Counted from the first letter of the stretch, positions 54,584-59,748 are shown. The stretch is 64,000 nucleotides of DNA from Dehalococcoidia bacterium (GCA_965249275.1 CBDFLQ010000006.1:32001-96000); one strand, 5' to 3'. Notes: generated by a model not told the origin, from the sequence alone. Translations and numbers: made by a program.

Positions 54584-56065
54584 CTAGTCTTTGAGTTCTA
54601 GAGTAGTGACGCTGCCCGTCGATAGGGTAGCGACCCTGATTGCGTGATTGTTCGTGTCGGCAATGTACATCTTGCCGTTCACAATGGCCAAACCTTCCGG
54701 CTCATAGAAGAGGGCCGCCCTGGCGGGGCCGTCCTCAAACCCCGTGTCCCCAAGCCCGGTGAAGCTCACGACGGCCTGGGTCAGAGGCTCGATTCGCTTG
54801 ATCTTGTTGTTGTAGGTGTCAGTCACGTACAGCATCCCCTCGTGCCAGCACACCCCTTGTACGTGCTGAAGAAGTGCCCTGTCCCCGACTCCATCCTTGT
54901 CCCCGAAGTCGAACAGGCCCGTTCCCACCAGCGTGCTCACCTTCCCCGATTCTCCTCGAGTTGCCATGCGTATTGCGCTAGTTTCGCTGTCCGCGAAGTA
55001 GATCGTATCTCCGTCAGTGTCTATCCCTGTCGGCTGGGCCAGCATCGCGTTGCGGAGAGTCCCGTCCTTGATGCCCTCCCTGCCGCTTCCGGCAAATGGT
55101 CCCACGTACCCGGACTCCAGGTGCATCACCCAAAGCTGGTGGAACCCCGCCATGGCGATGTAGAGCATCCCGTCCAGGCAGGTCAGGTCCCACGGCGAGT
55201 TCAAGGCTACCGACCCCACCCCCCCGTCGTGGAACATCCGGGCCTGCTCTCCCGTCCCGGCTATCGTCTCCACCCGACGCTCCCGCAGGTCTACGCGGCG
55301 GATTGCGTGATTCTCCGTGTCGGCCACGTAAAGGCTGTCGCCCGACAGGGTCAGACCATGAGGATGGTGGAATTTTGCGTCGGCGTAGTCACCATCCTCC
55401 AGCCCCACATCCCCACCCCCGATCACGTCCAATATCTTCCCGTCCAGGGAAATCGAGAGCACTCTGTTATGGTTGGAGTCCGAAACAAAGAGCCGAGACC
55501 CCTTCTCATCGGCGATGATCTTGCTGGGGAACGAGAGCGTTCCGCCTTCCTCCTTGTGCACCGAAAGCCCGGGAATCGGGGTCCGGTCCAGCGTGCCCCT
55601 CGCCTCAAACTCGGTGATCATGTCTCGGATCACCCTGTCGAACGCATCGAAGGTTATCTCACCCTCGTGCCTCCCCAGGATGTTCCCTTCAGGGTCGACT
55701 ACGTAAAGCGTCGGCCAAGCCCTCGCCGAGTACTGGCTCCACACCCGGAAATCCTTGTCGTTCACCACCGGGTGCTCGAGCTCGAACCGCCGGATCGCCT
55801 TCTCGATGTTGGCTGTGTCTTTCTCGGAGGTGAATTTGGCAGAGTGGACGCCCACCACCACCAGCTCCTCCTGGTACTTCTCTTCAAGTTTCCGCAACTG
55901 CGGAAATATGTGCATGCAGTTAACTCAGCAATATGTCCAGAAGTCCAGGATGACTATCTTGCCCTTCAGGTCCTCCATGCTCAAAGGACGCTCGACGTTC
56001 AGCCAGTCGATGTCCCTCGGAAAGTCCGGGGCCTTTACGCTGCCTACCATTGTCTGTTGTGCCAT
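54584..56065 (-). CDS. Thioredoxin-like/NHL-repeat selenoprotein (TGA at 55925-55927, codon 47)
   Basis: Reads [40 protein letters not shown] in frame with ORF 54584..55915; RBS GAGGAG; hairpin at 55889-55906. Confidence 0.85.
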
Positions 56066-57096: not shown

Positions 57097-57428
57097 GCCC
57101 GCTCCTCCTGCTTGTCATCGGCCTCCATTGTTTCATTGACTCGCTTCGCCATGAGGTCCGGTCGGATTCTAAGTTCGCCCCGCCGATAGGCCATCACAAT
57201 CTCCGGGTCCACCTCTATGGCGGGGCGCATCTGGGCGAAGTCCTCCGCGGTTAGCTCCGGGTTGTCTGGGTCTCGTGCGATGCCAACGTCGATGGCCACT
57301 TCCTCACCATATAGCGTCTCTACCTCCTCGAAATCCATTTCCAAAGCGGCTAGTTTCTCAACCAGCGCTCTGTCGATTTCTACTTCGCCGGGTGCGGGCG
57401 CGGCCTCATTCGATTTACCGCTCAGCAT
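57093..57428 (-). CDS. BrnA-like antitoxin with atypical C-terminus
   Basis: IARDPDNPELTAEDFAQMRP motif; ATG at 57428 overlaps the brnT end. Confidence 0.6.
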   Translation of the reverse strand: MLSGKSNEAAPAPGEVEIDRALVEKLAALEMDFEEVETLYGEEVAIDVGIARDPDNPELTAEDFAQMRPAIEVDPEIVMAYRRGELRIRPDLMAKRVNETMEADDKQEERA

Positions 57429-57675
57429 ATTCCTTGCGCTCCTTGGGTTTCGCAATCCTGAAACTTATGACACGCCTCCGTTCGCCCCGAATAACGTATA
57501 CCAAGTGATGGAGTCGGCCTTTCAAATAACCTGTGGCAGTCAATCGTGGCTCGGCATACCCTTCACTTGGCCGGATTAAAGCCGTATTCCACTCGAATTC
57601 GTAGACTGAGTAAAAGTCGACCTTGTGCTTCTGAAGGTTCGCTAATCGCTTTACCTCATCCCACTCGTATTCCAA
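57415..57675 (-). CDS. brnT: BrnT family toxin
   Basis: YEWDEVKRLANLQKHKVDF..E.R..RVISFRIA..KE. Confidence 0.88.
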   Translation of the reverse strand: MEYEWDEVKRLANLQKHKVDFYSVYEFEWNTALIRPSEGYAEPRLTATGYLKGRLHHLVYVIRGERRRVISFRIAKPKERKEYAER

Positions 57676-57795: not shown

Positions 57796-57954
57796 TTATT
57801 GAGTACTGCTAGTCCTCTTGATCGTCTTAATCGTCCTCCGCGCCGCCTCGCGTGCCCATTCTATTTCTTGCTCCAGGTTGGGAACAGATTTCAACTCACC
57901 TCGTTCGAACTTCTCAAGAATTTCAAGCTCTTCTGCGTCTAAATTCTGCTTCAC
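57796..57954 (-). pseudogene. Truncated CopG-type antitoxin remnant (52 aa; not in the ORF track)
   Basis: GTG start after GAGG: MKQNLDAEELEILEKFERGELKSVPNLEQEIEWAREAARRT..; the RHH half is missing. Confidence 0.55.
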
Positions 57955-58071
57955 AATTGCCACCTCAATCCCATTGTAATCCGTACACGCTTTGGAAGTT
58001 TGAGCCTATTCTAATCACACTACCAAAATGGCGACTTCTGTGTCGTAATTTAGCAAATTAGAATCTCTACC

Positions 58072-59249
58072 CTACCCCGTCCCCAGATACTCCAGCGCCG
58101 CTTCCGTCATCACCTTCAACCCGACCTCCAGCGCCCGCTCGTCGAAACCGAACGTCCCGCTGTGATGAGGCCCGTACTCCCCCTCCTCATCCCCACCCCC
58201 GACGATGAAGTAGCACCCCGTCACTTCCTTCTGGAAGTACGCCATGTCATCGCCACCCATTGATGGCTCGCAGTCAATAACGTTTTCATCTCCAATGGCC
58301 CGAGTTGCGGCGCTGCGGACCAAGGCCGTCATTGCGGGATCGTTCATAACCACCGGGCTCTGATAAATGTCCTCAAATGCGTACGACGCCCCCGCCGCGG
58401 CCGTTATACCGCTCAGCACTTCTTCAATCCGCCCCATGACCCTGTCCCGCGTCCCGTCGTCAAAGGCCCGTACCGTGCCCTTTAGCTCGACCTCATCAGG
58501 GATTATGTTGAACGCCGTCCCGCCCCTTATCATCCCGATGCTCAGCACCGCCGCCTCCAACGCACCCACGTTCCGGCCCACTATCTGATGCAGTGCACTC
58601 ACTACCTGACCCGAGACCAATATCGGGTCGATCAACGATTCCGGGTGGGCCGCGTGACCTCCGGTCCCCTGGATTCTGATCGTGAACTCGTCCACGCTGG
58701 CGAACATACCCCCACCCTTACCCCCACCTTGCCAACGTCAAGCCCATTGATGATGTGAAGGGCCAGGGCCGCATCTACCTTCGGGTCCTCCAGCGCGCCC
58801 GACTCGATCATCCCCAGGGCCCCGCCCGCGGTCTCCTCCGCCGGCTGGAAAGCGAACTTAACATTCCCTTTGAGCTCCCCCCTCATCCCCACCAGCACCG
58901 ACGCCACTGACATAGCCACGGCTACGTGTCCGTCATGGCCTCAGGCATGCATCTTCCCCGGCTCACGAGAGCAATAGTCCGCATCGCTGTCCTCCTCGAC
59001 GGGCAACGCGTCCATGTCCGCCCTGATGAGCAACGTCCTCCCACCCGACCCCCCTCTCAGCAGTCCTGTAACCCCCGTACCCCCCACCCCAGTCTTCACC
59101 TCCAGCCCCAGTTCCCTTAACCCATCTGCCACCATCCCCGCCGTCCTCTCCTCCTCGAAAGACAACTCCGGGTGGCTGTGAATGTCCCTCCGAAGTGCCA
59201 CCATTGAGGGTATAACTTTCTCGTATGCGTGGTTCAGGTCTAGCGTCAT
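58072..59249 (-). CDS. M20D amidohydrolase (hippurate/IAA-amino acid hydrolase family) with TGA at the metal-binding Cys and one frameshift
   Basis: RRDIHSHPELSFEE, RADMDALP, MHA-TGA-GHDGH, FQPAEE, GGHAAHP, MGGDD and PHHS..FDE; frame change at the C5 run 58709-58713. Confidence 0.8.
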
Positions 59250-59748
59250 GGAAAGTCTCCTTGAATATGGACTAGTGCAGCCCAGGCTAAGCGGATTCTA
59301 TATCACGCCCCGAGCCCCATCCAATACCCCCACCCCACCCCTCTATAGACGCAACCATTGTGGCTGCCCTGCCCCTTCCCTCCGTCATTCCAGTGCACCG
59401 ACACGGGAATCCAGAAATGACCTACTCGCGTTCCCTTCCAACTGTGACATCAACCCCTTGCTCCACCCCACACCCCATCCTATATAATAGTCCCATGCCA
59501 GCGTGCTCTTCCCTCTCTTCCACTCGGTATCCTTGCCCTCGGGAAAACGCGTGCAAAAACGTTTTCTTTCCGCAAATCAATCAAAGCAGGCACGAGTTTT
59601 GATTGTAACTATCAAAACTCCCCATTTTGACAAGATGCAAAAACCATCCAGTGTCCCCTCCATCTGTGACCCCCGCCCCTTGACCCCCGACCATGTGCGC
59701 GGTAATCTATTTCTAGGTATTCGCTAGACAGCAAGTCAGGAGAACCAA

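Follow-up and report, generated by a model that had tools for sequence, protein, structure and literature searches.

A predicted selenocysteine form of an M20D metallo-amidohydrolase in Dehalococcoidia, with counterparts in other phyla

We analysed 64,000 nt of DNA from a Dehalococcoidia bacterium (GCA_965249275.1 CBDFLQ010000006.1:32001-96000); this whole stretch is called the window below. An M20D amidohydrolase gene lies on its minus strand at 59249..58072, and its parts are collected in Table 1. The gene opens with an ATG at 59249, the same Met at which its orthologs begin. Its first part reads MTLDL...REPGKMHA and meets a TGA at 58943-58941, after which the frame stays open as GHDGHVAVAMSVASVL...FQPAEETAGG...GKVGVRVG. 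Beyond a run of five G, the remaining protein, MFASVDEFTIRIQGTGGHAAHPE...EYLGTG, is found in the next frame and closes with a TAG stop at 58072. The Pfam domain Peptidase_M20 (PF01546) was detected on both pieces and M20_dimer (PF07687) on the second piece only. The C-terminal ligand His belongs to an HH pair (ortholog residues 362-363) within the third part of the coding sequence. A preliminary description, made from the sequence alone, had placed an in-frame TGA at the Cys of the motif MHACGHD (58941-58943), with the frame running on to FQPAEE; both the coordinates and the motif proved correct.

Table 1. Features of the amidohydrolase gene, in window coordinates
Feature	Position	Strand	Basis
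Shine-Dalgarno-like AAGGAG, 7 nt upstream of the ATG	59257..59262	-	Direct sequence reading
Coding sequence part 1, M1-A102, up to the predicted Sec codon	58944..59249	-	Frame translation, Pfam, common ortholog start
UGA, predicted selenocysteine U103, at the Cys position of MHACGHD	58941..58943	-	Ortholog and structure alignments
SECIS-like stem-loop, +6..+42 after the UGA	58899..58935	-	RNAalifold consensus, frozen codons, hairpins of other clades
Coding sequence part 2, G104 to about G179, with His105, E138-E139 and His165	58714..58940	-	Frame translation, ortholog and structure alignments
G5 homopolymer (G6 in 9/9 relatives): one-base deletion, frame shift in the assembly	58709..58713	-	Comparison with relatives; public contigs
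Coding sequence part 3, shifted frame, MFASVDEF... to TAG, with the dimerisation domain and the C-terminal ligand His	58072..58708	-	Translation, Pfam, alignments, omega

The surroundings of the gene were also inspected. In the 500-bp intergenic region upstream of it (about 59270-59500), GGGGTGGGG-like G-runs are abundant on the minus strand. A HesB/IscA-like ORF for Fe-S biogenesis (PF01521; 59749-60090, plus strand) is divergent from the amidohydrolase gene and carries Cys here; HesB-like proteins are selenoproteins in some bacteria. Just downstream, on the minus strand, is a BrnT-family ribonuclease toxin (69 bits) with an adjacent 55-aa ORF that has no Pfam match and could be an antitoxin (57415-57675 and 57796-57963, both minus strand). 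These neighbours, the HesB-like gene and the BrnT toxin pair, were uninformative on function.

Family membership was assessed with an intact ortholog, P0002, which is 96% identical to the window's protein. It scored 355.4 bits on TIGR01891 (cut-off 153.75) and gave full-length matches to four Cys-type M20D enzymes of known structure: YxeP of B. subtilis (1YSJ, E = 1.3e-78), SACOL0085 of S. aureus (4EWT, 4e-72), ILL2 of Arabidopsis (1XMB, 2e-68) and the N-acyl-glutamine aminoacylase N-AGA of Corynebacterium (6SLF, 7e-47). With E-values from 1e-78 to 7e-47, these belong to the same fold family, and they have in common the Peptidase_M20 and M20_dimer layout, five ligand positions and an MHA-x-GHD motif, but they carry Cys where the window gene has a UGA and a SECIS-like hairpin. 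MHACGHD aligned letter for letter to all four, and the five ligand positions (motifs MHACGHD, QPxEE, xxH and xH) aligned to those of 6SLF and 1YSJ as U103, H105, E138/E139, H165 and H362/H363. In the metal-site account of PMC7209930, from which the ligand identities at the five positions were taken, the sulfur of Cys-105 in 6SLF ligates both zinc atoms, in agreement with the preliminary description, which had called the motif Cys a metal ligand; the corresponding account in a review (PMC11511702) is the same. Since this Cys-105 aligns with the UGA, a Sec would bridge the binuclear centre of a hydrolase, and by homology Sec103 is the putative bridging ligand.

The substrate was sought in protein models and gene neighbourhoods. 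P0002 reached 366.2 bits on CpsA (NF040868, cut-off 500) and 272.3 bits on DoeB2 (NF038260, cut-off 550), below the cut-off in both cases. In Pfam searches, no conserved neighbour was found among 46 flanking frames of 12 Sec loci. As the scores stay below these equivalog cut-offs and the neighbours differ by clade, the substrate can be named only as specifically as 'N-acyl amino acid or small peptide'. Another M20 family hydrolase with a selenium-linked annotation is YgeY (NF009555, 'selenium metabolism-linked'), but the match to it is weak and covers only part of the model (24 bits, cut-off 321). Its tie to selenium is one of gene context, and YgeY is not known to contain Sec itself.

We searched the whole genomes of 60 relatives for orthologs with the N-terminal 180 residues. 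The organism's family (f1) yielded ten orthologs with 67-97% identity, from the window genome, eight congeners and one species of another genus; two further genera of the family gave no match at the search threshold. In all ten, TGA occupies the Cys codon of MHA-C-GHD and is the only in-frame TGA, and the genes of the nine relatives are otherwise uninterrupted (390-392 aa). In the class, the next ten homologs by rank (at most 59% identity) contain no stop and have TGT or TGC at this codon. Next to the ten family orthologs, the 19 genomes of the 401-genome class sample and the 33 loci across phyla that are described below, with TGT or TGC in the distant homologs, dispose of the possibility, raised in the preliminary description, that the TGA is unique to this genome.

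Selection was estimated as pairwise Nei-Gojobori omega on a codon alignment of the ten orthologs (45 pairs), with the frame break of the window written as NNN. Downstream of the TGA, omega was 0.046-0.122, with dS above 1 in many pairs, and upstream, in the N-terminal 102 codons, it was 0.068-0.47 in the same 45 pairs. From these ranges, constraint on the coding sequence behind the TGA is no weaker than on that in front of it. Relaxed selection downstream, which the preliminary description had named as a possible outcome, was not seen, with omega of 0.05-0.12 pointing to strongly purifying selection. The codons from the TGA to the next Met, GHDGHVAVA after the TGA, are conserved as protein in 10/10 orthologs. 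No Cys paralog was found in the window genome, where the next M20 matches are 28% identical. We rejected genome-wide reassignment of TGA, because the codon still terminates 239/916 long frames in the genome; within the window it ends 2/10 Pfam-supported ORFs. On these comparisons, the TGA is very probably a true Sec codon rather than a nonsense mutation.

The machinery for selenocysteine was examined in the window genome and its congeners. The window genome encodes SelA (452.6 bits), SelD (388.7 bits; G000:C2:14217-15140, locus L012) and, in a 620-aa frame, a SelB winged-helix domain. The SelD frame contains one in-frame TGA, so SelD is itself likely a selenoprotein. No tRNA-Sec was found in the window assembly (2.9 Mb, seven contigs, scored 87% complete), where the best Rfam matches were tRNA-Ser and ARAGORN listed 44 tRNAs, none of them SeC. 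In the congeners, selC was detected in 5/5 genomes as a 95-nt match (65.8-67.3 bits, cut-off 47), and ARAGORN called a tRNA-SeC with anticodon TCA in both congeners checked. The gene and some 3 kb of flanking sequence are present in 5/5 congeners, but when the 3.1 kb around selC in the closest relative (L074, gene at 1501-1599) were compared with the window assembly by blastn, there was no match. Given this missing region and the completeness of 87%, selC most likely falls in an assembly gap. Of the Sec machinery that the preliminary description had proposed to look for, selA, selB and selD were thus found in the genome itself, but selC only in the five congeners.

A second in-frame TGA was seen in the window at 55925-55927 (minus strand), within a thioredoxin-fold C-U-V-N-C motif. 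The ORF concerned has 443 aa and contains NHL repeats and a Thioredoxin_8 domain that is cut at its N-terminal side; extended upstream through the TGA to a Met at 56065, it occupies 54584-56065 (minus strand). It is a second candidate selenoprotein, with Sec in a thioredoxin-fold redox motif.

The UGA of the amidohydrolase gene could instead be read through as Cys or Trp, by near-cognate decoding or by a selenium-free tRNA delivered by SelB. The missing tRNA-Sec in the 87% complete window assembly would fit such decoding, and natural recoding variants of the Sec system are among the cases cited in PMC5424206. We nevertheless consider it very improbable, given that SelA and SelD are present, SelD itself with an in-frame TGA, that all five congeners have a canonical tRNA-SeC (TCA), and that the second TGA of the window, in a thioredoxin-fold C-U-x-x-C, fits ordinary use of Sec.

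A selenocysteine codon is expected to be followed by a SECIS element. In the E. coli fdhF type, this is a stem-loop a few nucleotides after the UGA, with an apical loop about 20-25 nt downstream that holds a G and a U. The preliminary description had quoted a 22-nt hairpin at 58930-58909 with G and U at +22 and +23 after the TGA. Its letters, its position and the G/U were right; the loop of 2 nt in which it was drawn is infeasible, and a CGUG tetraloop takes its place (58920-58917; +22 is the G and +23 the U). The upper stem has 7 bp, ACGUAGC/GCUAUGU (58927-58921 with 58916-58910), and is set on a lower stem. The consensus fold, obtained with RNAalifold on the ten sequences of family f1, spans +6 to +42. 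One pair of its lower stem, formed by the third bases of an Asp codon and an Ala codon, alternates between C-G and U-A, and is C·A in two sequences.

Within the family, the hairpin stands out by its frozen codons. Among the ten orthologs, 210 degenerate columns have an invariant amino acid, and the codon is invariant in only 22 of these. Five such codons follow one another at +5 to +9 (CAC GTA GCC GTG GCT). No run of invariant nucleotides in the gene is longer than the 16 nt on the apex of the hairpin (58928-58913), and the second longest (8 nt) spans the TGA; only at the apex are synonymous sites frozen over a long distance. The hairpin was 96% paired in the family, against 15-52% at slid registers. 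Covariation inside the family was no better than in shuffles (285/500 as good), because the hairpin scarcely varies there.

Measures based on single sequences were less informative. The fold of the hairpin region in the window gene was unremarkable (z = -1.82, with 8/200 shuffles as good), and the z-scores of most orthologs were not distinctive either. Minimum free energy split Sec from Cys forms weakly (-15.3 vs -12.3 kcal/mol, p = 0.018, a value that overstates the support since related sequences are not independent). A search of 58700-59300 against 4227 Rfam families at a permissive threshold returned no match. The evidence for the hairpin comes from comparisons across genomes.

When unique sequences were compared at the same position, 36/37 Sec sequences had an uninterrupted stem of at least 6 bp, compared with 5/17 Cys sequences. 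The G+C content was 0.68 in both sets, and the Cys forms with a hairpin (5/17) have it in a G+C-rich stretch. Hairpins of other clades include GGCCAUC-GGUCU-GAUGGCC, CCGCCAUC-GGGGU-GAUGGCGG, CCGCGGC-GGUCCUG-GCCGCGG and CACCGC-GGUC-GCGGUG; each lies at the same distance from the UGA and is written in different letters. We tested the helix on 19 distinct sequences from outside family f1 in one shared register. Pairing of the 8-bp helix was 94.1%, against a mean of 77.2% in shuffles and 22-66% at slid registers. Compensatory double changes occurred in 5/8 pairs, and 24 cells were changed on both sides (7.9 ± 2.0 in shuffles). None of 500 shuffles reached the observed pairing or covariation, although these p-values and helix figures overstate the support, as related sequences are not independent. 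The cross-clade pattern in these sequences is what a SECIS element predicts. The likeness to the fdhF type extends to the loops, which are GGUC, GGUCU, GGGGU or CGUG in different Sec-M20D clades; the clade of the window differs from it in its CGUG tetraloop and in having no Rfam match, and binding by SelB is putative.

The frameshift that the preliminary description had noted is present in the assembly, as G5 at 58709-58713 where the relatives have G6. The site reads GTGGGGGTATG in the window and GTGGGGGGTATG in the closest relative, and nine relatives read VGGMFASVDEF across it. This deletion in the G-run is the only indel inside the gene relative to the closest relative. Omega after the frameshift was 0.06-0.08 between the window copy and its three closest orthologs. 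Homopolymers are the usual place of long-read assembly errors. In four public runs, contigs were found with the extra base, which gives the six-G, in-frame form; the depth with that base out of the total depth was 18.8/37.9 in X1, 36.9/36.9 in X2, 9.98/9.98 in X5 and 37.3/61.8 in X7, in contigs that include close relatives and are not assignable to the window strain. We therefore rate an assembly error or a minor strain variant as the most likely source of the G5 form, and as a probable one.

Alternatively, the window copy could be a recently inactivated pseudogene, in which the TGA would be an ancestral Sec codon, the change from G6 to G5 real and the C-terminal 211 residues lost. The assembly does show G5, and in X1 the extra base accounts for only about half of the depth, so the five-G form may exist in nature. 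Against inactivation stand the extra base in contigs of X1, X2, X5 and X7, the low omega past the frameshift, the homopolymer position of the sole indel and the lack of a Cys paralog that could substitute. We regard such a loss as unlikely. The caveat of a pseudogene in the preliminary description therefore concerns at most the window copy, because of the frameshift in its G-run; the TGA is not touched by it.

To estimate how widely the arrangement occurs, we scanned one genome each for 185,579 prokaryotic species with the pattern M-H-A-TGA-G-H-D-G-H. The scan gave 33 loci in at least six phyla. Seven of the 33 were apparently the same genes as loci of family f1, judged by identical scores. 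The remaining loci were from MAGs labelled as other Dehalococcoidia, Planctomycetota, Methylomirabilota, Armatimonadota, Candidatus Fervidifonticultor, Poribacteria, a deltaproteobacterium and a Clostridia bacterium. After the TGA, 278-293 codons were open in 31/33 loci; one stops at 203 and one runs off its contig. The locus with 203 open codons (L040, a Planctomycetales MAG), compared with about 290 elsewhere, may be a truncated or broken copy. SelA was present in 9/10 sampled genomes of the other TGA-bearing clades.

The most divergent TGA form (L063:2091-2117, minus strand; 31% identity) is from a Clostridia MAG, where genes for aspartokinase, DapA and DapB lie beside it. With a stem of 5 bp, it has the weakest hairpin of all. 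The gene may encode the N-acetyl-diaminopimelate deacetylase of the lysine pathway in a Sec form; it may also be a pseudogene, a reading that we keep because of the weak 5-bp stem.

The distribution within the class was assessed in a systematic sample of 401 genomes, 86 of which carried homologs at E ≤ 1e-60 (one of them, G253, is flagged as unpublished and was counted as a form without the stop). The TGA form was present in 19/86 homolog-bearing genomes: ten in the window's family, seven in genus g77 and two in family f64. In family f34, TGA was found in 7/7 matched genomes of g77 and in 0/6 matched genomes of other genera. Among the loci that were fetched, TGA was at the Cys codon in 9/9 TGA forms, and TGY was there in 10/11 Cys forms, the motif regex having missed one.

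Phylogenies were built with two programs. A FastTree phylogeny of 95 rows (33 Sec and 62 Cys; seven duplicates, three partial genes and every second database protein were omitted) needs nine changes of the Sec label, of which well-supported branches force at least three. A quick IQ-TREE phylogeny of 62 rows needs seven, with at least two forced, and nests the Sec clade of g77 within a family-f34 clade with Cys forms (99% support). A tree constrained to keep the 24 Sec rows in one group is worse by 167 log-likelihood units and is rejected by the AU test (p = 0.0002). On these trees the predicted Sec forms are polyphyletic. The AU rejection and the forced changes together indicate that Cys and Sec were exchanged more than once, whether by gain or by loss of Sec.

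In public protein collections, the close orthologs appear in shortened form. Among the 120 matches listed from a collection of 5.8 billion proteins, 15 clusters with 71-95% identity were all 269-282 aa long and covered 69-72% of the ortholog, from which we conclude that they are truncated at the UGA. The full-length matches among these 120 were at most 53% identical, and 105/105 that were checked carry the Cys motif. The short clusters are what would be expected if the TGA were a plain stop, so that the gene gave either two proteins or just a C-terminal one of 280 aa. Such a gene, however, would leave an annotated piece that begins after His105 and has two of the five metal ligands missing, while GHDGHVAVA is conserved as protein behind the TGA in every family ortholog and the N-terminal 102 codons are under purifying selection. 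It would also leave the hairpin and the Sec machinery without a role, and the same arrangement recurs in unrelated phyla, always at exactly the Cys codon. We consider a plain stop extremely improbable, and a Sec codon remains our reading. Since gene callers stop at UGA, annotation and selenoproteome counts for Dehalococcoidia, Planctomycetota, Methylomirabilota and others miss the Sec-M20D genes.

Earlier reports were sought in models and in the literature. NCBIfam holds no Sec-specific model for an M20D amidohydrolase, and full-text literature searches brought up no selenoprotein described as an M20 enzyme, amidohydrolase, hydrolase or peptidase. Nor did term look-ups find one in the main texts of BSepDB (PMC13326102), deep-Sep (PMC12013277), the Haft preprint (10.1101/2022.07.06.499078), the GOS survey (PMC2398784), the ISME J 2016 study (PMC5029168) and SelCysML (PMC13745706). 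BSepDB, by the count in its main text, comprises 111 families and subfamilies (PMC13326102), and Sec-M20D may already be listed among them. Two candidate precedents were discarded: Sapep (PMC2937973), which belongs to a different M20 subfamily and whose cysteines are not ligands, and a Campylobacter avium genome note, which is unrelated.

The best explanation of these data is that the gene is very likely the selenoprotein form of an M20D (TIGR01891-type) binuclear metallo-amidohydrolase, functional in its lineage. At the level of sequence, the selenocysteine interpretation of the preliminary description is supported. In the proposed mechanism, SelB with Sec-tRNA(Sec) would bind the stem-loop that starts 6 nt after the UGA, and Sec would be inserted at residue 103. 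Once the protein has folded, the selenolate would replace the conserved Cys thiolate and ligate both active-site metal ions, with His105, the Glu pair 138/139, His165 and the C-terminal His as its partners. By means of metal-activated water, the amide bond of an N-acyl-amino acid or small peptide would then be hydrolysed, as it is by the Cys homologs. We infer the actual insertion of selenium, the metal bridging, the substrate and the benefit. As to the benefit, our guess is that selenium gives tighter or altered metal binding, or a bridging ligand that resists irreversible oxidation.

Known selenoenzymes are almost all oxidoreductases, and redox chemistry is the usual explanation for the cost of Sec. 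As a direct metal ligand, Sec is known from formate dehydrogenase (Mo/W-Se) and [NiFeSe] hydrogenase, where it is inserted at a UGA by SelB with a 3' hairpin. Both catalyse redox reactions and have a single redox-active metal site, whereas the window enzyme would have a Lewis-acid binuclear hydrolase centre in which Sec bridges both ions. A Sec that holds two metal ions in a hydrolase would be an unusual non-redox use of selenium, recurrent in several phyla. With restrained confidence, we lean towards regarding M20D as an undescribed selenoprotein family, in which Sec would have repeatedly and independently replaced the metal-bridging Cys of a non-redox hydrolase, with at least two and perhaps seven to nine switches in six or more phyla. 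If true, this would be a natural experiment in which selection has favoured selenium for a Lewis-acid role that is coordinative alone (a change in metal affinity or selectivity, or a bridging chalcogenide shielded from irreversible oxidation) and not for redox catalysis. The several switches between Cys and Sec would provide matched natural pairs, such as genus g77 and its sister genera in family f34, and such pairs would allow a direct test of what selenium adds in affinity, metal choice, pKa and resistance to oxidation.
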